The notes below the pieces were generated by a model that saw only the letters and a program-made list of their open reading frames with translations, ran no database searches and was not told the DNA's origin. The position numbers were made by a program, and so were the translations under genes. Below are positions 17,155-47,546 of a stretch of DNA of 64,000 nt, piece after piece (position 1 is the first letter of the stretch; every line of letters begins with the position of its first letter). The DNA lies in IMG/VR virus record IMGVR_UViG_3300014204_000110; one strand, written 5' to 3'. This DNA is from a virus. Its lineage: Duplodnaviria; Caudoviricetes.

Positions 17155-19908
17155 ATGCCTATAGCTAGAGAAATAAATCTACCCTCTCCTGCTACATATG
17201 TCCAAGATTATGGTCTCAATGTTTCTCCTACTCCTACTCAACGAAATAAAAAAGTCGTTGTTATTGGTACAGCTGAAGATGGTCCAATGTATGAACCTAT
17301 TCAGATTGAAAAACCAGAGGATGCAGAATATGTCTGGGGAAGACTTGGTGCTGGTGATCTTGTTCGTGGTGTCTTCGAATGTTGGGATGTTCAAGGCGGT
17401 CATCCTACTGTTGTAGGAGTTCGTATTGGAAATGGTGAAGAAGCCTCTTTAGATATCGAAGAATCCACAGGTAGTGGATCAGATACTGAACTTGGTGGTA
17501 ATGCCACATCTTTAAAATTAGAAGCTCTTTTTCCTGGAGCAATATATAATCAGATTAGTGTAAGCTATGATGAAAATAGAGATGTTGCAATATATAATCC
17601 TAAAACTGGAGTTACTTCTACTTTTTCAGTTGATACAGAACGACCAACTAATCCTAACGTAGATGCACATAATGTAGCCGAGTTAGTAGACGCAATAAAT
17701 GCAGATCCTAATTTAAATAGTATTTTAAAAGCGACATATTCTGGAATATTAACAGATTATGAAGTATGTATTAGTGGAAATAGTACTGGTGTAAATAATA
17801 CTTCTACTTATGTTGAAGTAAGTTTACCTGATTTAATCAGTAATAGTTATATTACTACTTCTGGTTATATGATTCCTAATCCAATTCATGGAGTAGTTTC
17901 AGCTGGAAATGATATTATAAATGTTGAAGCAATTGAAGCTGTAAGTATTTCTGAATGGGAACAGATACAGTGTGCTGGTAAAACTACTAACAAATTAGCA
18001 TATATGCCATTGGATGGTAAAGCACCAGCTCGATGGAATACAATACAATCATTATATGATTATAATAGTGATTCAGAATATATTCAAGATCCTTCTGGTA
18101 ATATAGTTTCTGAGTATATATATAATCTTAATAGTGCTCTTATGGATGGTGGTACTGGAGAAGGTGGACCTACTAGATCTGGTGGTTACTTTGTTACTGG
18201 ACTTCCTACTAATACTATTCGAGTCACCGTTCCTCTTTGTATTGCAGATAATGAAGAACTCGTAAATAGTGGTGTTGCGGATGCTTATATTAATAGTTTA
18301 ATTACATCTACTTATGCATCATATTCTGGTGTTGGACATAGATATGCAACTTGTTCTGGAATTGCTACTAAATTAGTAGAAGGTGTTGCAGTTCGACCTT
18401 CTGGTAAAATTCAGATTCAGGCTGCAATGTCAGATGATCCAAATGATTTCTGGCAGACTCTTCCATATGATGGAATATCTGGTATTTATTTATCAAGTTA
18501 TTCAGCGGGTGTAGCAGTATTTTCAATTGGAGCAAATGCTTATGCAGATAGTCCTATTATGCAAACACTTGTATCATCTGGAAATATTATACGACCTGAT
18601 GTATATCTTAGAATAACTGCTAATACTGTAAAAGGATTTTTGAATGAGAAAGAAAACTTAAATGCTTTATCAAGTGCTTCTACTCTCACAGATTATTTTG
18701 TTAGAGGACAGGAAATAGTATTTAATACTCCTCCTTCTTTTAATGTTACAGTAAATTATGGAACTAGGATTGAATATGAACTTGGAAGCAATGTTACATT
18801 AAGTGATGCTGCTAATGGTAAATTTGTATTTGATGACGCAGAGCTATTGCCTGGTCCAGGAGGTGGTCCTTTATCTAATACAACAAAATCATATTTACGA
18901 TTTAGATATACTTATTTACCAACGTGGCCTAATATAACTACTGCTGCTAAAGCAATGTCTGGTGGAAGTAATGGAACTAATCTAAATAGTCGTCAGCGTA
19001 AAGAACTATTAACTACATGTTATGATAGACTCCGAAATTATGGAGCTGATCTATGGGTCCCAATGAGTGCGTTTATAGATGAATTAAGTGAACGATTTAA
19101 TCCAATTACTGGTCTTAAGGAAACAATTCCTACAGACTATATAACTGACATTAATGACTTTCTAGAAGATCTATCTATAAATAATATTCAACCACATGCT
19201 ATACTTGGTGTTAAACCAATGGATGACGTTAATCAGGCTAATAAAGATCTATGGGTAAAACGACTTACAGAACGTGATCTTAAAGATCCTAATCGAGGTG
19301 CTAATATTATGGCTTTGGTTGGAAGTAAGTTTATTTCTGTATCCGCTTTTGAACCTGTATTTCTAAATATTGGTAGAGGTCGACCATATGTAGCAAATGG
19401 ACAAGCTGCTTATGCAGGTATGCTTGCTTCAATGCCATATGATATATCTCCAACTAATAAATCTATTACTGGACTTCAAGGTCTTAGATTTTCATTGTCA
19501 ACATCTCAATATGAAGCTCTTAATAGTTCTAGATATGTTACTATGAGAACAAAACCTGGACGTGATCCAGTTGTTGTAGAAGATGTTACTGCTGCACCAG
19601 TTGGAAGCGATTTCGTAAACTGGTCAACTTATAGTATCACTGCTGAAGCTGCTAATAGAGTATATGCAATTGCAGAAACCTTTATTGGTAGACCAAATAG
19701 TGTAGAAGTAAGAACATCTCTAGAACAGTTAATCTCTAATACTCTTATGAGTATGGCTGGTTTACGAGGATTCGATTTCTCCATAAATAGTACTCCGAAT
19801 CAACAGGTTCTTGGTATTATCGAGGTCGATCTTATAATTGTTCCGATTTTTAGTATTAAAAAAATTAGAACAACTGTTAAATTGCGTAAAAACTTACCAA
19901 GTAGATAA
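17155..19908 (+). CDS. Tail sheath protein with a large central insertion
   Basis: RBS GGAGG; N-terminal VVVIGTAEDGPMYEP; C-terminal SPTNKSI, FIGRPN and VDLIIVPIFSIKKI sheath motifs. Confidence 0.9.
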   Translation: MPIAREINLPSPATYVQDYGLNVSPTPTQRNKKVVVIGTAEDGPMYEPIQIEKPEDAEYVWGRLGAGDLVRGVFECWDVQGGHPTVVGVRIGNGEEASLDIEESTGSGSDTELGGNATSLKLEALFPGAIYNQISVSYDENRDVAIYNPKTGVTSTFSVDTERPTNPNVDAHNVAELVDAINADPNLNSILKATYSGILTDYEVCISGNSTGVNNTSTYVEVSLPDLISNSYITTSGYMIPNPIHGVVSAGNDIINVEAIEAVSISEWEQIQCAGKTTNKLAYMPLDGKAPARWNTIQSLYDYNSDSEYIQDPSGNIVSEYIYNLNSALMDGGTGEGGPTRSGGYFVTGLPTNTIRVTVPLCIADNEELVNSGVADAYINSLITSTYASYSGVGHRYATCSGIATKLVEGVAVRPSGKIQIQAAMSDDPNDFWQTLPYDGISGIYLSSYSAGVAVFSIGANAYADSPIMQTLVSSGNIIRPDVYLRITANTVKGFLNEKENLNALSSASTLTDYFVRGQEIVFNTPPSFNVTVNYGTRIEYELGSNVTLSDAANGKFVFDDAELLPGPGGGPLSNTTKSYLRFRYTYLPTWPNITTAAKAMSGGSNGTNLNSRQRKELLTTCYDRLRNYGADLWVPMSAFIDELSERFNPITGLKETIPTDYITDINDFLEDLSINNIQPHAILGVKPMDDVNQANKDLWVKRLTERDLKDPNRGANIMALVGSKFISVSAFEPVFLNIGRGRPYVANGQAAYAGMLASMPYDISPTNKSITGLQGLRFSLSTSQYEALNSSRYVTMRTKPGRDPVVVEDVTAAPVGSDFVNWSTYSITAEAANRVYAIAETFIGRPNSVEVRTSLEQLISNTLMSMAGLRGFDFSINSTPNQQVLGIIEVDLIIVPIFSIKKIRTTVKLRKNLPSR

Positions 19909-19994
19909 AATAGTTAGGAGTCATGACCTAACTTATAAGGGTAGAGGTAGTTTAACCTATTGCCTCTACCCAAACTTTAAAAATAGGAAAAATA

Positions 19995-20474
19995 ATGAGT
20001 TCAAAAACTTGTAAAACATGTAATATTGAAAAAGATGAATCGGAATATTATAAATATAAAAATACATATTGTCGAAGAGATCATTCGTATAAAGAATGTA
20101 AAAAATGTTATAATCTTAGAGTTAAAAAATATTGTGAAAATAATAAAGAAAAAAAAAGAAAATCCAGTAAAATATGGTGGGAAAATAATAAAACTAGTAG
20201 AAATATAATACGTAAAGAACAACGTTTAAAACGAAATTATGATTTATCTTTAATTGATAGAGAAAATATTTTAAAAGAACAAGATTATAAATGTAAAAGT
20301 TGTAATACTGATTTAAAAAATTTAATATCTTATCATATACATATTGATCATGATCATACTACAAATGTTATTCGTGGAATATTATGTAGAGGATGTAATA
20401 TTGCTTTAGGTTTATTAAATGATGACCCAGATAAAATATTAAAATTATATAATTATTTAAAACCCTTTAAATAA
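19995..20474 (+). CDS. Free-standing HNH endonuclease, endonuclease VII family
   Basis: CxxC motifs; QDYKCKSC...HIDHDH...IRGILCRGCNIALG. Confidence 0.88.
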   Translation: MSSKTCKTCNIEKDESEYYKYKNTYCRRDHSYKECKKCYNLRVKKYCENNKEKKRKSSKIWWENNKTSRNIIRKEQRLKRNYDLSLIDRENILKEQDYKCKSCNTDLKNLISYHIHIDHDHTTNVIRGILCRGCNIALGLLNDDPDKILKLYNYLKPFK

Positions 20475-20508
20475 TATCAAAATCTTCCAAGTAGATAACT
20501 TGGAAGTA

Positions 20509-20559: not shown

Positions 20560-22396
20560 ATGGGCGCAAGTCCTGCTAATTACCAGAATACTGAAAGCGC
20601 AGTTGATGGTATTAAATCCACTTATAACGCTTCGGCAGGAACAGATATCGTCGCTACCATTGACGGTATCTTAATTGGAAATTTGAATGGTATAAGTTTC
20701 AGTACAACCCGTGAATAGCTTGCGGCCTTATATAGTAATATATATTGAATAACGCCATTAATTGCTGGAACATCCTTATAGGACAATCAGCAGCTACTTA
20801 ATTGTAGTTCAACGACTATCCCGAAAGGGAGTAGAGTTTAGTAAACTCGAAACATGGCGGTTCTTTGAAAGAACGTGATATAGTCTGAACTTACTGGTAA
20901 CAGTAAGAGAATGTATGGAAACGATACATTCGTAACATATTTGGAGAAAGCTCCGATTTATACACTGGGTAAATAACACTGCCCACTTTTAGAGTAATCT
21001 AATTGTAAAAACATTGGGTGAATTCGGTGAAGGTCTGAAAAGAATAATACCGAGCCAAGACCTTGGTACACTAAGGTAAGGTGTAGAGACTACTGGAGAG
21101 ATATAGTTCTCTTAATAACCAGTCCAGCGCCCAACATCCTTATAGGATGAAGAGATAGTCCAAAATAAAGAGTGTAGATGCCGTTTCATTCGGCAGAGGT
21201 AAGCGTAAGCAACATTGCGCTTGTAAAATTCTGTAAATTGCTGGGATAACCTTATAGGTCAATCAGCAGCCAAGCTTAAGTAGAAATACTTTTGAAGGTT
21301 CAGAGACTATTCCGAAAGGAAGTAGGGTCTAAGTAGACTCGAAAGACAGAATAGTTAGAAATAACTAATGATATAGTCCGATCTTTATGGTAACATAAAG
21401 AGAATATATGGAAACGATATATTCGTAACACAAATGGGTCATGCTGGTTCGTTAATCTCAAAGTAAAAGGGATCGTATGTTAGTAATAACATATTGCAAC
21501 TCGTCAAATTGCTGGAATCTCCTTAGAGTCTTAAATACTTAGAAATAAGTGACAATTTTAAGAATTGGACAATCAGCAACTAAATTCATAAGTAATTATG
21601 ATAAATGCTCAGAGACTAAATGGCGAGATCCTCTATCTAGAGGAATAAGATATAGTCCAGACTACAACCGAAAGGGCTTGAGAAATCAAGAGTAGTAAAG
21701 TTACGAACTTTGATAGACATGCATTATATGATATAATGCAAGGTACATTTCAGGACAGTAATGCAGGACCTGCAGATAGGTATAAATATTATGCTAAAAC
21801 TACAGATATTCCTGCTGGTGGACGAAGTTTACTTTTAGGTAAACAACATCTTGACGCATTAGGAGCACTTGGTTCACAAAAATCAATTGCAAACTATAGC
21901 GATCAACTTCCACCAATGACTATCACTTTAACTTCAATGAATGAGTATGGAAATGTTAGTGCAATGCACATACTTGGAGTTGAATTGATTAATGAGGGTT
22001 CTGGTGTGTCAATTGATGATATTGTGACAGAAACGCAGATGAACGGTTGTCTGCCTCAGTAGTAATACTGATGATAAAACATCACCATATGCGGGAATAA
22101 CCTTAGAGTCTTAAGTACCAAAGTGTAACAATCTTAAGAATTGGTCAATCCGCAGGAAAGACTCGAAAGAGAATCCTCAGAGACTTTATGTGATGCTCCT
22201 ACTTGTAGGATGAAGATAAAGTCCGATCTTAATAGAAATATTAAGCTAACACATTTGGACGTTTGTAGCTCGTGGTATTATCGGTTGGAAACCAATCTCT
22301 CAGAATGGTGGAAATGTGAATATTAAAGCAGATGTACTTGCTCAGATGAATAATCTTACAGCAGTACAACAGGCTCAATACAACGGGCTCAATTAG
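20560..22396 (+). CDS. Tail tube protein, 238 aa after splicing; exons 20560-20712, 20944-20970, 21171-21206, 21437-21458, 21701-22040, 22258-22396
   Basis: RBS AAGGAGG; joined exons give 717 nt in one frame: ...ISFSTTR|EKAPIYTLG|SVDAVSFGRGKR|GHAGSLIF|TNFDRHAL...TETQM|TFVARG...; collinear with the intact paralogue at 22464. Confidence 0.92.
20713..20943 (+). mobile_element. Group I intron 1 (231 nt, no ORF)
   Basis: Exon ends in U with P1 CCGU/GCGG; core AATTGCTGGAA...AATCAGCAG; P7 GACTA/TAGTC; terminal G. Confidence 0.9.
20971..21170 (+). mobile_element. Group I intron 2 (200 nt, no ORF)
   Basis: P1 GGGU/GCCC; P10 ACACT pairs with exon AGTGT; core GAATTCGGTGAA...ACCGAG; GAGACTAC/AAGAGATAGTCC; terminal G. 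Confidence 0.88.
21207..21436 (+). mobile_element. Group I intron 3 (230 nt, no ORF)
   Basis: P1 AAGCGU/GCGCUU; core AATTGCTGGGA...AATCAGCAG; CAGAGACTA/GATATAGTCC; terminal G. Confidence 0.9.
21459..21700 (+). mobile_element. Group I intron 4 (242 nt, no ORF)
   Basis: P1 AUCU/GGAU; P10 GTAA/TTAC; core AATTGCTGGAA...AATCAGCA; CAGAGACTAA/AAGATATAGTCC; terminal G; phase 1. Confidence 0.9.
22041..22257 (+). mobile_element. Group I intron 5 (217 nt, no ORF)
   Basis: P1 GCAGAU/GUCUGC; core TGCGGGAA...AATCCGCAG; CAGAGACTTT/AAGATAAAGTCC (covarying P7); terminal G; phase 2. Confidence 0.9.
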
Positions 22397-40373: not shown

Positions 40374-40561
40374 TGGGTATCAAGACAAAATTAGTTATTG
40401 ATCTTCCAGATGATGTTGATTATACTCAACACGTTAATAATATTAAAAATCAAATATCTAGAATTAATGGATTAGAAACTATTGTAAGTTTACAGACGAT
40501 AGATGATCCAATCAGCCTTAGTCCAACCAATATAAGAAAAGTAAGTGAAGCTAATGACTAA
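40373..40561 (+). CDS. Small hypothetical protein
   Basis: 62-aa ORF, TAATG-coupled. Confidence 0.5.
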   Translation: MGIKTKLVIDLPDDVDYTQHVNNIKNQISRINGLETIVSLQTIDDPISLSPTNIRKVSEAND

Positions 40562-43500
40562 TATTGATCCAAATACAATTGGAAATGCTTTATATTTTAT
40601 TCTTACTAAAAAAGAACCTTATAGTAAATATATATCTATTTATTCTTCAGATCAATCTCTTGGTAAATCTACTGTTCCTAATTTAATTATAGAAGTTTAT
40701 AATAAATATTTTAAGCTTCAAGTTAATCTTAATACTCAATCTAAAAGTAATATATTTATTTTACAAGGTGGAGATGTTATTAAAACTGGTAGTGGTAATA
40801 CTTATTTAATAACTCATTCTGAAGGAACAGTTGGAACTTGGCCAAAATTAACAGATATAGATAATCTAGAAATTAATTCTACTATTAAACAGTATGAAGT
40901 TATAAGACCTAATTTTGATAATATTAAAGAAACATTACTTGAAGATCTTCAAAATATTGGAAAAGAAATATTATCCACCGATAGTGAAACTAACCGATTA
41001 CTTGAGCAAATTCCTGAAACATTAAATAATTCCAAAGATATTAAAAGTGCAGATGGTGTAGACTTTTATTCATTAGGTGAAGGTGCTTTACAAATTGGTG
41101 ATTTAATTTTTGTTGTTGATCCTACACAACTTGCTTTTAATTCTCAAAACGGATATCAATATTTTCCTACTTTAAGAACTCAAGGTAATCCAAAAATACC
41201 AACTACTCAACAAGTTAAAAATTTATCTATTAATTTGATATTTCCAAATGAAGATAGTATAAATTATCAACTTTTAAATTTATATGCAATGTTTAAAAGA
41301 ACTCCATTTGTTAATATAAGAAATAAAGATATTTGTGAATTTTTTAAAGATATTTGTTTTATGGAAGAATGGCTTCCAGTTGCTCTAGAAAGTATTCAAA
41401 TACAATCAGTTCCTGGTTTTCCAAATACATTACAAGCATCAATAACAATACTTCCTTTTGATTATAGAATGATGAGTGATGGATTTCAAGCACTTCTTTC
41501 AATGGAAGATGTAGAACGTCAACAAACTATTTTATATCGAAATGAAGAATATGATAGATTAATTAGAAAAGCAGAGTCTAAACTTGATGAACAATCTGTA
41601 TCAGAAGAACGATTTCTAGATGTACTTATTCATGATATAGATAAATCTCCTGATTTTAGAAACAGTTTGCCATTTAGAGCATTTTATCAATCTTTGATAG
41701 CTGATCGTAAATTTATAATGAATAGTTCTGGTAAAATAGTTTCTACCTCTAAAAAAGGTAGTTATGATATTGCTTGGTTTAGACCAACTAAGACTGAAAA
41801 TTTACTTAATGAATATAAAGCTTCTTCTAATAATAAATCAATTACATTATCCTATAATTATATTTCTAAAGATTTTCAAACATTTTCTAAAATAGTTTCT
41901 AATGAACGCACTGATAAACAAGTACGACTACTTAAACAACTTACAGATTTTTATACTTCTATTAGAACTAAAGATGATCTTATAAAAGAAATGGTTACTT
42001 TTTTTACAAGAAAAGAAGATTTTTATAATATAACTGAAGGAAAATTTCAAGAACTTTCTAATAATATAATTCCTAATTTAGTTACTCGATTTGGTATTAC
42101 AATGGAAGGTCAAAGTGAAGTAATTATTAAAAATTGGTTTGATCTTCTTACCAAAGGTTTTGCTATAAAACAAGGTTGGGTACAAACATTTGAATCAATA
42201 CAAAGTATAAATAATTTCTTTGGTGGTAATTTTTCTGTTGATAATACTGATGTTTTAGGATTTTTAAATGGTGTTACTTATACTGATAAAGATACCTTTG
42301 GAGTTGGAACATTTCAATGGGGTATTAAGAAAATATGGGATTGGATTGATACTGGAACTGATAAACAAAAAGAATTGAAAAAGAAAAACTTTTCAGCATT
42401 TCTAGGAGAATTAAGAGTTGCTATTACTAAAGAAATTACTTCTGAAACTCTTGTTGTAAATCCTACTGCTGATGGTGAAATGTTTAGTATTGCTAGAATA
42501 CCAATTGTATCAGAAGATATTGTTATAGATAATGTTAGTGATATAATTGTTGGTTGGTCAATTGTGTTTTCTAATAAATTTATTCCAATGACATTACAAG
42601 CATATAAATATCCATATTATCAACATATTGGTTCTGAAGATCCAGTAATGTCTTTAAATATAACATCAATATATAATAAAAATAAAGATTTAAAATCACA
42701 ACTTTCTATATTATCTGAACGTCTTCATGAATCAGCAAAAGTTGTTACTCTTAATGCTCCAGAGTTGATAACATATCTAGATCCTAGAATAACTATTAAT
42801 GCTGAAGCAAATAATTTATTTAATTCTTTTGGAATTAAAAAAGTTGTATTTGATTCTTTTAATATTGTTAATATTGATGGGCAACCAAATAGTTGGAATA
42901 TTGCAGTTAATTTTACTCAATCGAATTTTACAATATCTGATTATCATGGTGTATCTCATGTTCCTTCTAATGAAATTGCTATTCTTGAACTTGCTAAAAT
43001 AGTTTCAAGTATAGAAAAAATTAATGATAATTATGTTGTAATGGATTATAAAACTAGAAGTGGTAATTTATTAAATCTCAATGATATTCTTAAAATAAGA
43101 TTTCTAGCTTGGTCAGTAAGTAATATTGATCAAAAATATAATATCATTGAATATATTAAACAAGTTAAAAGTGGAAGACAAAGTAAAAATACTGGAACTA
43201 TTGGAAATGAATTAGCTGATAAATATTTACAAGAATTTTATAAATCTATAGGTAGTCTAGAAAGTTTTTCATTATCACAACCAAATACTACAGAAAATTT
43301 TAATGTACGAGAAGTTAATATAACTAAAACTAAAATTTTACAAGATTTAATATCTAATACGCAATATAAAAATATTTTAGATTTTATAAATATTAAAACT
43401 GAAGAATTATTTAAATTAAAATCTGAACTTATACGATCTTTGATATTTAATGATAAATCTTGGTTTAGAAATTATTTAGATAGATATGATGCTAGGTATA

Positions 43501-46500
43501 GAGCTAATCCTATATTGTTACCTTATGTAATAGCTATATTTGATACAATTGAACTTGAACAAAAAAATAAAGTAACATCAAAATTATCACCAATATTTAA
43601 TTCAATGGAAGAATCTTTTTCTTCAATGGTTTCTATAGATTTTGCAGATAAAATATTAAGAGATCCAGTTGTATATAAAAAAATAATTACTCCAGAAATA
43701 ATTGGTGAAACTCAGTTTAATAATATAGAACGTTATAAAAAGTTATCTAGAGTTAATTGTTATAATGATTTTGATATTCCTAATTTTTCAGATACTGTTG
43801 TTTTAGGACCAGATTTTTATTTATATAATAATATAGTTGATATTTCTGAAAACAGATATTATATATCTGAATCTCTTAAACGATATGCGAAAATTGGTAA
43901 ACTTGGAGCAATGATGTCTTTAGTTGAATCAACTGATGCTCTTATAAAGTATGACCAAATTATATCACAACTTGAATCTATTGAACCTGAAGTTAAAGAA
44001 GCGGTATCAGTATCTCTAGCTGATGATATTCCAGGATATACTTCTGATGGAAATATAAAAGAAATTATAGCTAAATTAAAAAATATACAGACTCAAATAT
44101 CTTTATGTAATAATAGTATTGATGAAATAAATACAATTTCTGATGATAATCAACAATTATTAGATAAATTTAAAAATGATTTTGAAAATAATTTATATCC
44201 TGGAATGAAAAAAGAAGAATTTGATACCGCTTATAAAATAATGGAATCAAAAGTTAGTAAATTAAAATCTGGTATAACTGTTGAAAATATTGATTTTAAA
44301 AAGATAAATCTTATACATTCAGCTAGAACAATGACAATGTTAGAAATTTTTGAAATATATAGTGTTTTAAATAATTATATCATTGATGAAATTTCAAGTA
44401 AAAATAATATATTTCAAATGAAACCAACTAAACTTGATGATCAAGGTTTAACCAAAAGTTCTTCTGAAAAAGAAGTTGCACAAAAATTGTATAATTATGT
44501 TAGATTTGTCCTTATAAATAATAAAAATATAACTACATCTTCATTAGAATCTGGTGGAACTTTTTCAAGTGATAGTTCAACTGAAGATAATTTTAAAAAA
44601 GAACTTAAAAAACAATTTAGTGCTGGTGGTATTTCTGATTCATTTAATAAAACTTTATCATTACCCAATTTGCGTAATATACAAAACTATTTATTTAATA
44701 AAATAGGTTATTATATAAGATTAAATTCTTTTATTGTTGAATATGGAAAAAGCAATTCTATAGGAAAAATTGATTTAACTAATCTTCCAGAACTTAGTTA
44801 CTTAGATTTTTGGAATTTTCGATCAATTGAAGAAAATGATAGAAAAATTAAAATAATAAAAGAGTTTTCAGAAAACCAAGATAATAAAAAAGATACAACA
44901 ATTAAAATGTATCCAACATTTAAATTATTTTTTGTTGAAGAAGATAAAAATTTTATAACACATAATTTTGATGATTATTATACACAGAATGCTATTCAAT
45001 CTATTGAAATTGTAAGTAATAAAAATTCTGCAAGTAAAACCGCAAGAATTATTTTAAGTAATGTTACTAATTCACTTACTGATAAAATGAGTCTTCTTAG
45101 AGAATCTGAAGATTTATTTGGTAATAGTATTGGTACTGATGTTAAAGCTAAAAACTTATTTCTAGGAACTCTAGATGTTAAACCTGGAACTCAAATAATT
45201 ATTAAAATGGGATATGCTCCTTATGATAATCTATTAACTACTGTATTTCATGGAAGAATTATAGAGATGAATCCTGGAAGCATGGTGGAAATGATTTGTC
45301 AGGATTTTGCATCACAACTAAATCATAAAGTAGTATCAGAAAAATTTGGTGTTGCTTCTACTGTTAAAGATTATGGTGATATTGCTTCAGCTACTCTAGA
45401 TATGATTCCTGGACTTGAAAAACTTGGTAAAGAATCTAAATTTAATATTATAAATACAGATAATTTTACTGGAAGAAATTTAAGAAATATTGGAAGTAAT
45501 TTTGCTAATAGATATCTTATGAGTAATCTTTTTGGATCACTTTCAGCACTTAATGCTGCTAAAGATAATCCTAGAGATGAAAACATATATTTAAACTATA
45601 GTGCTGTAAATACTGTATATCATAAACCAACGTTTGACTGGATTATATATGATCAGACAGTCTGGAGTGTATTACAAGAATTATGTTTATATAATAGAGA
45701 CAAAATTGCGACAATTAGGACATATAATGAAGATCCAATGTCTAGTAATAATAATCTACGAGAAACAATAGTAGTTGGTGATAAAGCTGGTTATTATAAA
45801 TGTACAGATTCTTTTGCATTATCTTCTTTAAATATTAAAGAACTTGATGCATTTGCTTCTGAATGGGATACTATTAAAAATTTAATTTTAAATAATAAAT
45901 ATAATTCTGCATATTGGGAAGTTACTAGAGAAGTAGCAAGTCTTAATGAAGGTGAAGTGTTTATATATAGACGTCTTAATAAATCTGGTGTTCAGTTATA
46001 TTCTTTTCTACAGAATAAATTAAATTCTCTTGTACTTATTGCTCATCTTTTAGATACTTATAAATTAAATAGTAGTCAGTATGTATTTGATCAACTTCTT
46101 ACATCTCTTACTGAAAATAAGTTTTTTAAAGATGATTTTAAAGAAATGATATATAATATTTATAATTTTAATAAAAATTATTTTATTAATACTGATCAAT
46201 TAAATTCTACTATATTTGAGAGTTCTACAAAACAAGTTATTAACTTTGAAAAGATTATTACTGATCTTAGAAAATATATTAAAGATGTACAATTTGTAAA
46301 AGAATCATATTATAATGTAAAAGATACATCTTCCAATATTGATCAAAAATATCTTAATGATCCTCAGTATAAAAAGATTCAAAAACATCATCTTATAACA
46401 GATAGTTCAGATATTATATCAAATAACATTTCTCTTAATTCTTCATTTTCTAATGTTGTTAATGTTTATTATACCAATGAACCAAATATAAATACTGCAT

Positions 46501-47546
46501 CGTTAGATAGTATTAGTCCTGATAAAATAAAAACAAGTGTTAATATGTGGAGTGTTAAAGCTTTTGGTGATCAGAAAGATGAGTTCTCTAGAATATTAAA
46601 TAGTTATCAAAAGAATATAGATACAAATTGGTTTGATGTTTCTAATACTCTTGCTAGTTTTTATGGTAAATTTCAAAGAATTAAAGGACAAGAATCTTTA
46701 AAAAAATATAAAAATTTACAAAATTTTGAATTACCAAGATGGGATTTATTTCCATCATTTGTTCTTGTAGGTGTAAGATTACTTCAAAAAGAAGTTGAAA
46801 GGATGTATCAAGGTACAATTGAAATTGTTGGTAATCCTAAAATACAACCTTATGATATTATACATTTACAAGATTACACAAATGATATGCATGGTGTTGT
46901 AGAAGTTGAAGAAGTCATTCATTCTTTTACTCCTGAACGAGGATATAGAACTATAATTACTCCTAATCTTATAACTTATGATAGAGATCCTATACAACTT
47001 CAAGATATTCAAATTATTAATCAAATATATGATTTTTCTAATGTGAGAAGAAATGTTGCTCATGTTGCTAATATTGCTACTGCTGGTATGTTTAGTATTG
47101 TTTCAATGCTAGGACTTGCTGCAGGTGGTATTGGTGGGACAGTCACAGCAATTGGTGCAGGATTACCAGCATTAGGATTTTTATATAATGGAACAGTTGG
47201 AGCAGTTGTTAAACAACAGAAGTTTTTGTATGATCAATTAGGACATATTCTTGGAAGAGATTGTATTAATTTTACTTCTTTATTATATCATGGAATGCCA
47301 TTTATGACTGGATTTGATGGTGTTGATTATACTAATTTAAAAACTTTAATGAATCATAAAGTTGCTGATATTAAAAATCCAATTAATCGATTTTTATCTT
47401 TTGGAGATACTTTTGATGCTAATATTATCACTAACTGGAATCCTGAAGAATATGGAATTCTTCAATCTATATTTGGAAAGTTACCTATTACTAGCGATAT
47501 TGCTAGTTATCAAAATTCAGGTTTAAAGACGGGATTTACTGAGTAA
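40545..47546 (+). CDS. Large baseplate hub-like virion protein
   Basis: 2333 aa; IIIKMGY...VFHGRIIE...MICQD and GTIEIVGNPKIQPYD...VEEVIHSF hub-like motifs; true start may be ATG 40554. Confidence 0.65.
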   Translation: MKLMTNIDPNTIGNALYFILTKKEPYSKYISIYSSDQSLGKSTVPNLIIEVYNKYFKLQVNLNTQSKSNIFILQGGDVIKTGSGNTYLITHSEGTVGTWPKLTDIDNLEINSTIKQYEVIRPNFDNIKETLLEDLQNIGKEILSTDSETNRLLEQIPETLNNSKDIKSADGVDFYSLGEGALQIGDLIFVVDPTQLAFNSQNGYQYFPTLRTQGNPKIPTTQQVKNLSINLIFPNEDSINYQLLNLYAMFKRTPFVNIRNKDICEFFKDICFMEEWLPVALESIQIQSVPGFPNTLQASITILPFDYRMMSDGFQALLSMEDVERQQTILYRNEEYDRLIRKAESKLDEQSVSEERFLDVLIHDIDKSPDFRNSLPFRAFYQSLIADRKFIMNSSGKIVSTSKKGSYDIAWFRPTKTENLLNEYKASSNNKSITLSYNYISKDFQTFSKIVSNERTDKQVRLLKQLTDFYTSIRTKDDLIKEMVTFFTRKEDFYNITEGKFQELSNNIIPNLVTRFGITMEGQSEVIIKNWFDLLTKGFAIKQGWVQTFESIQSINNFFGGNFSVDNTDVLGFLNGVTYTDKDTFGVGTFQWGIKKIWDWIDTGTDKQKELKKKNFSAFLGELRVAITKEITSETLVVNPTADGEMFSIARIPIVSEDIVIDNVSDIIVGWSIVFSNKFIPMTLQAYKYPYYQHIGSEDPVMSLNITSIYNKNKDLKSQLSILSERLHESAKVVTLNAPELITYLDPRITINAEANNLFNSFGIKKVVFDSFNIVNIDGQPNSWNIAVNFTQSNFTISDYHGVSHVPSNEIAILELAKIVSSIEKINDNYVVMDYKTRSGNLLNLNDILKIRFLAWSVSNIDQKYNIIEYIKQVKSGRQSKNTGTIGNELADKYLQEFYKSIGSLESFSLSQPNTTENFNVREVNITKTKILQDLISNTQYKNILDFINIKTEELFKLKSELIRSLIFNDKSWFRNYLDRYDARYRANPILLPYVIAIFDTIELEQKNKVTSKLSPIFNSMEESFSSMVSIDFADKILRDPVVYKKIITPEIIGETQFNNIERYKKLSRVNCYNDFDIPNFSDTVVLGPDFYLYNNIVDISENRYYISESLKRYAKIGKLGAMMSLVESTDALIKYDQIISQLESIEPEVKEAVSVSLADDIPGYTSDGNIKEIIAKLKNIQTQISLCNNSIDEINTISDDNQQLLDKFKNDFENNLYPGMKKEEFDTAYKIMESKVSKLKSGITVENIDFKKINLIHSARTMTMLEIFEIYSVLNNYIIDEISSKNNIFQMKPTKLDDQGLTKSSSEKEVAQKLYNYVRFVLINNKNITTSSLESGGTFSSDSSTEDNFKKELKKQFSAGGISDSFNKTLSLPNLRNIQNYLFNKIGYYIRLNSFIVEYGKSNSIGKIDLTNLPELSYLDFWNFRSIEENDRKIKIIKEFSENQDNKKDTTIKMYPTFKLFFVEEDKNFITHNFDDYYTQNAIQSIEIVSNKNSASKTARIILSNVTNSLTDKMSLLRESEDLFGNSIGTDVKAKNLFLGTLDVKPGTQIIIKMGYAPYDNLLTTVFHGRIIEMNPGSMVEMICQDFASQLNHKVVSEKFGVASTVKDYGDIASATLDMIPGLEKLGKESKFNIINTDNFTGRNLRNIGSNFANRYLMSNLFGSLSALNAAKDNPRDENIYLNYSAVNTVYHKPTFDWIIYDQTVWSVLQELCLYNRDKIATIRTYNEDPMSSNNNLRETIVVGDKAGYYKCTDSFALSSLNIKELDAFASEWDTIKNLILNNKYNSAYWEVTREVASLNEGEVFIYRRLNKSGVQLYSFLQNKLNSLVLIAHLLDTYKLNSSQYVFDQLLTSLTENKFFKDDFKEMIYNIYNFNKNYFINTDQLNSTIFESSTKQVINFEKIITDLRKYIKDVQFVKESYYNVKDTSSNIDQKYLNDPQYKKIQKHHLITDSSDIISNNISLNSSFSNVVNVYYTNEPNINTASLDSISPDKIKTSVNMWSVKAFGDQKDEFSRILNSYQKNIDTNWFDVSNTLASFYGKFQRIKGQESLKKYKNLQNFELPRWDLFPSFVLVGVRLLQKEVERMYQGTIEIVGNPKIQPYDIIHLQDYTNDMHGVVEVEEVIHSFTPERGYRTIITPNLITYDRDPIQLQDIQIINQIYDFSNVRRNVAHVANIATAGMFSIVSMLGLAAGGIGGTVTAIGAGLPALGFLYNGTVGAVVKQQKFLYDQLGHILGRDCINFTSLLYHGMPFMTGFDGVDYTNLKTLMNHKVADIKNPINRFLSFGDTFDANIITNWNPEEYGILQSIFGKLPITSDIASYQNSGLKTGFTE

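Follow-up and report, generated by a model that had tools for sequence, protein, structure and literature searches.

The DNA examined here, a stretch of 64,000 nucleotides (nt) from the viral record IMGVR_UViG_3300014204_000110 that we call the window, carries on its plus strand a short gene that is interrupted by five group I introns. A tail sheath gene (17155-19908) stands directly upstream in gene order and two longer paralogues follow the split gene, an arrangement that identifies it as the tail tube gene. Its first exon (20560-20712, 153 nt) holds codons 1-51 and ends in CGT. Intron I1 (20713-20943, 231 nt) follows codon 51 and is separated by the 27 nt of exon 2 (20944-20970) from intron I2 (20971-21170, 200 nt), which follows codon 60. 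Exon 3 (21171-21206, 36 nt), which also ends in CGT, leads to I3 (21207-21436, 230 nt), placed after codon 72, and exon 4 (21437-21458), with just 22 nt, leads to I4 (21459-21700, 242 nt), which splits codon 80 in phase 1. The longest exon, exon 5 (21701-22040, 340 nt), precedes I5 (22041-22257, 217 nt), located in codon 193 in phase 2 (we label this site codon 192), and exon 6 (22258-22396, 139 nt, stop codon included) completes the gene. Introns take up 61% of its span. Joined, the six exons form an open frame of 717 nt that encodes 238 amino acids (aa), and the product matches phrog_9206 across the junctions (E 4e-42).

All five introns are confirmed members of the Rfam family RF00028. Between 20690 and 22245 the family model matches the plus strand five times, with 60.2, 59.9, 80.3, 84.7 and 72.4 bits for I1 to I5 and a gathering score of 50, and Rfam finds no other RNA family anywhere in the window. 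Every intron is preceded by U and has G as its last base. In every one, a script located a P1 helix of 4-8 base pairs (bp), formed by the end of the 5′ exon and a guide 9-12 nt inside that intron, in which a U.G pair marks the splice site; in I1, the guide GCGG pairs with CCGU. Excision would also restore the gene, for intronless homologues are colinear with the 238-aa product and show no insertion or deletion at any of the five junctions, in protein or in nucleotide alignments, the latter made with three intronless relatives (L037, at 85.7% aa identity, L006 and L038). Introns of 200-242 nt leave no room for a homing endonuclease gene, and the longest open reading frames (ORFs) that begin inside them have 38, 48 and 61 codons for amino acids, the last of these continuing into exon 6. 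In these respects the initial annotation, made from the window's letters, described the locus correctly: it had reported five introns devoid of ORFs, each with a guide that matches its own exon, the insertion of I1 and I3 after a CGU arginine codon, and the intron endings ...TAACATATTTG, ...TAACACAAATG and ...TAACACATTTG. We expect each intron to excise through the guanosine-initiated two-step reaction, using its own guide, so that the spliced mRNA would yield a normal 238-aa tube protein.

The same annotation grouped I1 with I3 and I4 with I5 and proposed local proliferation, in which one founder would have given rise to the first pair and another to the second by reverse splicing or recombination, each guide adapting to its new exon later. 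The likeness on which the pairing was built is real. Against shuffled sequences, I1 and I3 score z=20, and blastn aligns them at 74.5% identity over 196 nt; no other intron of the window is nominally closer to either of them (E 1e-27), and both follow CGU. For I4 and I5, z=9.8 and the blastn match (78%, 52.7 bits) covers only 69 nt, from P3 to the P5 extension, while every other pair of introns remains below z=5. As a sign of local copying, however, the likeness is poor evidence, since the shared modules are family-wide. The 3′ domains of I1 (20905-20943) and I3 (21398-21436) consist of a GAAA-tetraloop hairpin and a ...GTAACA(N4)TG end. Their hairpin motif is found exactly in 17 other IMG/VR contigs, in whose alignment it is nearly invariant, and these external introns interrupt other genes, those for a DnaB-like helicase and a family A DNA polymerase among them, and no tube gene. 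The I3 hairpin equals the family consensus, and that of I1 is a variant with a compensatory G-C pair. A 25-nt string from P7/P7.1 of I1 recurs exactly at least 118 times in IMG/VR, and the ...TAACA(N4)TG ending is common to the introns of phage Twort and to the whole external family. The stems of the P5 extension of I4 (21521-21568, 48 nt) and I5 (22101-22144, 44 nt) likewise recur exactly in three other contigs. Among GenBank phages, I5 matches an intron next to the terminase gene in an Acinetobacter phage (87 bits), and I4 an intron of Pseudomonas phage KIL1 (76 bits). In our view, the resemblances within both pairs come mainly from structural modules that are conserved in widespread families of introns.

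The alignment assigns to I1 and I3 the features of IA2-like introns, namely a P7.1/P7.2 insertion, the 3′ hairpin and a ...GUAACA(N4)UG end, and compensatory changes affect 22 of the 39 base pairs in the alignment of their family. I2 has an insertion at the place of P7.1/P7.2 and lacks the 3′ hairpin; I4 and I5 have no such insertion. Even between I1 and I3 the architecture differs, for a Twort-like P2 hairpin is present in I1 and missing from I3, which counts against local proliferation. A plain MAFFT alignment of the five introns misaligns their 5′ halves, and we drew no inference from it. In a wastewater run, X14, labelled RNA-Seq and probably DNA, very deep short contigs are 88-95% like the I1 and I3 cores (20683-20943, 21205-21378); they are other members of this intron family, abundant in that sample. 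The joints in these contigs connect parts of different introns and do not represent splicing; the contigs say nothing about expression, for or against.

Protein-guided scans for related tube genes recovered 10 loci in IMG/VR, 37 in metagenomes and 2 in genomes, about 48 relatives in all; of the two on genome contigs, L077 is intronless and L078, more distant, was not mapped for introns. Rfam reported a single intron in the first ten relatives because introns that carry ORFs escape its model, and the others were located through gaps in tblastn matches. Most of the tube genes are uninterrupted and the distribution of introns is sporadic, with ten insertion sites in total, at codons 51, 55, 60, 70, 72, 73, 77, 80, 152 and 192, eight of them within 90 nt. 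Codons 51 and 60 are occupied in the window, by the ORF-less I1 and I2. Codon 72 is shared by I3 and L067, and codon 80 by I4 and L005, again with ORF-less introns. At codon 192, I5 has counterparts in L004 and L040 with LAGLIDADG ORFs of 277-278 aa (Pfam LAGLIDADG, E 2e-16, for the 277-aa ORF of L004). The other five sites are filled in relatives: codon 55 in L004, L064-66 and L067, with a 352-aa LAGLIDADG ORF in L004; codon 70 in L005, L056 and L064-66, with a 256-aa LAGLIDADG ORF in L005; codon 73 in L040, ORF-bearing; codon 77 in L040 and L067, with a 328-aa LAGLIDADG ORF in L067; and codon 152 in L067 and L070, with a LAGLIDADG_2 ORF in L067. Single phages can hold several introns at once. 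The phage of L067 (L074:2798-7033) has four in its tube gene (codons 55, 72, 77 and 152), three with LAGLIDADG genes, and no I1, and L040 (1302-4849) has three (codons 73, 77 and 192), each with an ORF.

The sites lie within the protein's two best conserved stretches, residues 46-84 and 186-200, where conservation is about 0.96 and the gene mean 0.71; the permutation test of this bias gives p <1e-4 for sites that are clustered and hence not independent. The second tube paralogue of a related phage, in L010 (4544-6910), has an intein (Hint domain with a LAGLIDADG-like insert) at the equivalent of codon 70, the position of the introns of L005, L056 and L064. In L004 (2800-2815) the codon-55 intron seems to follow G (exon ...AAAGCG) rather than U, with a boundary set by reading frame and terminal G only. 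Within I5 (22041-22075) an ATG is retained at the point that corresponds to the beginning of the codon-192 LAGLIDADG ORFs in L004 and L040, and its frame stops after 9 codons; an endonuclease gene since lost may have left this ATG behind.

When relatives are compared intron by intron, the nearest relative usually occupies the same site in another phage. I3 is closest to the codon-72 intron of L067 (L067:853-1083; 86.5-88% identity, 86.5% over 222 nt), with 256 bits for this match and 119 bits for I1, and the two form a clade with support of 97/96. The closest relative of I4 is the codon-80 intron of L005 (L005:3803-3999; 91% over 188 aligned nt, clade support 100/100), the main difference being that the L005 copy lacks the P5 extension. 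I5 clusters with its codon-192 counterparts in L004 and L040 (99/95), and its homology with them runs from P1 through to the 3′ terminus, except in peripheral loops and the ORF. An approximately unbiased (AU) test rejects a clade of I4 and I5 (p 0.00095). Of the four paired introns, three (I3, I4 and I5) thus have a relative outside the window that is nearer than the supposed partner, and neither I4 and I5 nor I3 with I1 are mutual closest relatives. The pairing of I4 and I5 falls with these results. That of I1 and I3 survives in a weak and altered form: the sister of I3 is the L067 intron, and I1 may be sister to the two of them, with support of 74/81 in the family tree and 91/85 in a second tree.

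I1 matches I3 best (223.5), followed by an intron in a DNA polymerase gene of L026 (220) and the L067 codon-72 intron (204.5), and the best of 80 further family introns reaches 193.5. An exclusive clade of I1 and I3 is borderline-rejected (AU p 0.049). Three-taxon site patterns place I1 as the outgroup, with 43 sites uniting I3 and L067, 14 uniting I1 and I3 and 9 uniting I1 and L067. The tree path from I1 to I3 (0.46) is similar to that involving the L026 intron (0.51), so any copy event must be old. One old switch of site, by which I1 left the codon-72 lineage, is plausible on this weak phylogenetic signal. I2 has its best match in the LAGLIDADG-bearing codon-152 intron of L067 (blastn, 86 bits), and a scan of IMG/VR with an I2-specific pattern found no match. 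We count at least four lineages among the five introns: I1/I3 (IA2-like, of the Twort tube family), I2, I4 and I5.

What remains of local proliferation, then, is the weak and old tie between I1 and the I3 lineage (74/81 and 91/85), the fact that the nearest relative of I2 occupies another site in this gene family, and a precedent for in-gene duplication in Twort, whose tube introns 2 and 3 are sisters (100/99) in the same family as I1 and I3. Weighing against it are the rejection of I4 with I5, both of which have same-site orthologues elsewhere, the far greater nearness of I3 to the L067 intron than to I1, and target sites of I1 and I3 that agree in just 3 nt (CGU). Overall we consider local proliferation unlikely. 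Part of the same initial proposal, mobilization in trans, stays plausible, since the ORF-less I3 and I4 are far more alike between phages than are the exons around them.

It might be argued that the paired resemblances arose by concerted evolution, gene conversion within the gene having homogenized I4 with I5 in the P5 extension and I1 with I3 in the 3′ domain. The same-site orthologues in L005, L004 and L040 do lack the P5 extension that both I4 and I5 carry in the window, and a small cluster of sites at which I1 equals I3 lies in the P5 loop. Yet the extension of I5 is identical to that of L032, an unrelated contig, and one base off that of L033, whereas its distal hairpin differs from that of I4; on this ground we rejected a copying of the extension between I4 and I5. 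The 14 patterns joining I1 and I3 are not clearly above the 9 joining I1 and L067, and these three-taxon patterns do not clearly indicate that I1 and I3 have exchanged sequence by gene conversion; it is I3 whose 3′ domain equals the external consensus while I1 deviates. Concerted evolution strikes us as highly improbable.

A comparison of introns with the exons that surround them bears on how the same-site introns came to be shared. I4 and the L005 copy are 91% identical, although exon 5 is only 75.6% identical between the two genes and its third codon positions 54%; I3 and the L067 copy are 88% identical, with exon third positions at 47%. Introns so much more alike than their exons point to transfer after the host genes had diverged, and the sequences suggest that same-site introns have moved between phages since that time. 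The opposite view is that an ancestor of the clade possessed most of the introns and that its descendants deleted them precisely. Such precise loss is known in general, and introns do occupy identical sites in tube genes of only 54-85% protein identity. But vertical descent offers no ready account of intron identities of 88-91% beside third positions of 47-54%, it would need many independent precise losses to leave most of the roughly 48 relatives intronless, and the occupied sites vary from phage to phage. We give this explanation little credence.

Another candidate for a driving force lies next to the gene. Between the sheath and tube genes, and 85 nt before the tube start, is a free-standing gene for an Endo VII-type (HNH-like) endonuclease of 159 aa (19995-20474, plus strand; Pfam PF02945, E 3e-18; PHROG endonuclease VII), whose product has many distant, free-standing homologues in phages. 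Two such genes are known to act on introns beside them: F-CphI, an enzyme with an Endo VII motif, promotes trans homing of the psbA intron of cyanophage S-PM2 (PMC6083498), and mobE of T4 does so for the neighboring nrdB intron (PMC2790892, PMC3984707). The window resembles these systems in having a free-standing Endo VII/HNH-type gene beside a gene with ORF-less introns. By analogy, the enzyme could cut intronless tube alleles close to or at their intron sites and so drive the ORF-less introns into new phages in the collaborative manner of these precedents (PMC6083498, PMC2790892); I1 to I4, 150-1150 nt downstream, lie within reach of co-conversion.

The distribution of the gene speaks against such a partnership, for unlike F-CphI and mobE the cassette is not co-distributed with the introns. 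The sheath-tube spacer measures 650 nt in the window and 20-103 nt in 40 relatives, all without the cassette, and the last codons of the sheath gene are present twice in the interval 19891-20506, at ~19895-19910 and 20481-20498, bracketing the insertion. A relative in run X6 (97-99% identical) has the exon 1/I1 junction and I4, and its sheath end joins at 20499 without a cassette. A relative in run X3 matches exon 5, I5 and exon 6 at ~98% identity, again without a cassette, and stops matching the window immediately downstream of exon 1 and immediately upstream of exon 5. Because the sheath end in these close relatives is joined directly to 20487/20499, the cassette must be recent and polymorphic; it is an independent mobile element, separate from the introns. 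The closest intronless relative, L037, has an Endo VII-type gene of 97 aa at the same intergenic spot beside its uninterrupted tube gene, a suicidal combination if the enzyme's target were an empty intron site. Homing of the introns through this enzyme therefore seems to us quite improbable, though a break at the cassette's own site could co-convert introns nearby.

The account that we favor, and consider probable, is that the introns of the window belong to a pool that circulates among the tube genes of related phages, with at least 10 sites and with LAGLIDADG genes in many of the relatives' introns, and that homing at the DNA level or co-conversion carries them from phage to phage, with later loss of endonuclease genes and one or two old switches of site. 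I3, I4 and I5 would have reached or kept their sites through homing or recombination at the DNA level between co-infecting phages. I5, and perhaps other introns, would be derivatives left after the loss of an endonuclease gene. ORF-less introns that lie 22-36 nt apart could ride along in the repair tract of a break made by the endonuclease of a neighbor. No more than one or two old moves within the gene family would then be needed, I1 having come from the codon-72 lineage and I2 being related to the codon-152 intron.

Several points count against this account of a shared pool. Self-splicing of the five introns is itself read from their sequences, and the high identity of same-site introns could owe something to selection on ribozyme structure instead of recent transfer. 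In none of the relatives was an endonuclease-bearing version of I1, I3 or I4 found at the corresponding site, and homing followed by ORF loss is extended to these three by likeness to the I5 site. The trees were built for family members from short MAFFT alignments of 190-255 columns, and the external introns were gathered by motif, which biases their sampling. Finally, once the same-site orthologue is set aside, I1 and I3 nominally remain the best matches of one another (223.5, vs 220 for L026).

Codons 51-80, with at least 8 sites in 90 nt and an intein in a paralogue, might be a landing zone in which I1 and I2 represent true moves of ORF-less ribozymes from site to site. We hold this to be possible but rather unlikely; if it were true, the two moves would be natural evidence in phage for site switching of a reverse-splicing or illegitimate type. 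In ribosomal DNA (rDNA), related introns at different positions are taken as circumstantial evidence for reverse splicing (PMC3984707), and the relationships of I1 to the codon-72 lineage and of I2 to the codon-152 intron are similar in that related introns occupy different sites within one gene family. They differ in that the host is a protein-coding phage gene, the support is weak, and the likeness of the target sites amounts to CGU for I1 and I3 and to nothing for I2.

In its outlines the system fits the cycle of gain and loss of homing endonucleases that has been described for group I introns, together with the tendency of introns and inteins to occupy conserved sites (PMC3984707, PMC2814812). 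The sporadic spread, the forms with and without an endonuclease at codon 192, the conserved insertion sites and the intein in the L010 paralogue all agree with that cycle. What sets the tube gene apart is the concentration of ten sites in one gene of 717 nt, eight of them within 90 nt, and the fact that all five copies in the window have no ORF.

The closest known parallel is orf142, the tail tube gene of Twort, for which a passage in PMC11878797, citing Landthaler & Shub 1999, gives three self-splicing group I introns and exon skipping. In the Twort record MT151386 the gene is annotated as a join of four pieces, and Rfam finds three matches in it. As in the window, the tube gene comes right after the sheath gene and holds several small, closely spaced introns without ORFs, and Twort introns 2 and 3 align with I1 and I3, including P7.1/P7.2 and the ...UUCGUAACA(N4)UG end. 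The two loci differ in the number of introns (three in Twort, five here), in the shortness of the exons (22-36 nt in the window) and in ancestry, Twort having one close set of introns and the window at least four lineages in an uncultured jumbo phage. A tblastn comparison of the Twort and window tube proteins gave no match. In Bastillevirinae, the DNA polymerase and terminase genes have up to three group I introns per gene, which form a heterogeneous IA2 class with mosaic colonization by endonucleases (PMC11878797); those are genes of replication and packaging, whereas the window has more introns in a structural gene.

As far as our literature search reached, three group I introns are the most documented for any phage gene, a maximum that the five in this 717-nt gene exceed. 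Comparison with the ~48 relatives turns what had looked like a single oddity into a system, with ten sites, forms of the same introns with and without endonucleases, and an intein in a paralogue. That system opens two questions: whether it is hitch-hiking on breaks made for their neighbors or the switching of sites that lets ORF-less introns survive and spread, and how ribozymes fold and choose the right partners across exons of just 22-36 nt. The claim of local proliferation has been corrected in most of its parts, and shared modules have proved to be poor evidence of recent kinship.

Most probably the element is an uncultured jumbo myovirus whose DNA ended up in a bacterial genome bin. In an assembly of 2.36 Mb and 194 contigs, the window maps to C3, a contig of 92.9 kb with 29% GC. 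Contig C121 (135.7 kb, 27% GC) brings the total to 228.5 kb, and the two contigs probably make up a phage genome of ~228 kb; in IMG/VR, related tube genes are found on contigs of 213-230 kb. A megablast search of GenBank phages with 15 kb around the tube gene found no match. Two DNA runs, from landfill and groundwater, contain the whole stretch; they are possible sources of it and were treated as non-independent. The end of C3 falls at window position 44704, a point crossed by an ORF of 2333 aa (40545-47546), and hence a longer version of the contig stands behind the window.

The assembly contains one further group I intron, its sixth, at C121:66638-66835 (L003:1501-1698, minus strand; 70.4 bits), flanked by an ORF of 503 aa and one of 265 aa with an HNH-like motif. 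Unrelated IMG/VR contigs, too, have several group I introns packed into a few kilobases: L016 (173-5233) has four Rfam matches and one copy recognized by motif only, and L021 (551-3034, the same as L027) has three, beside an array of tRNA genes.

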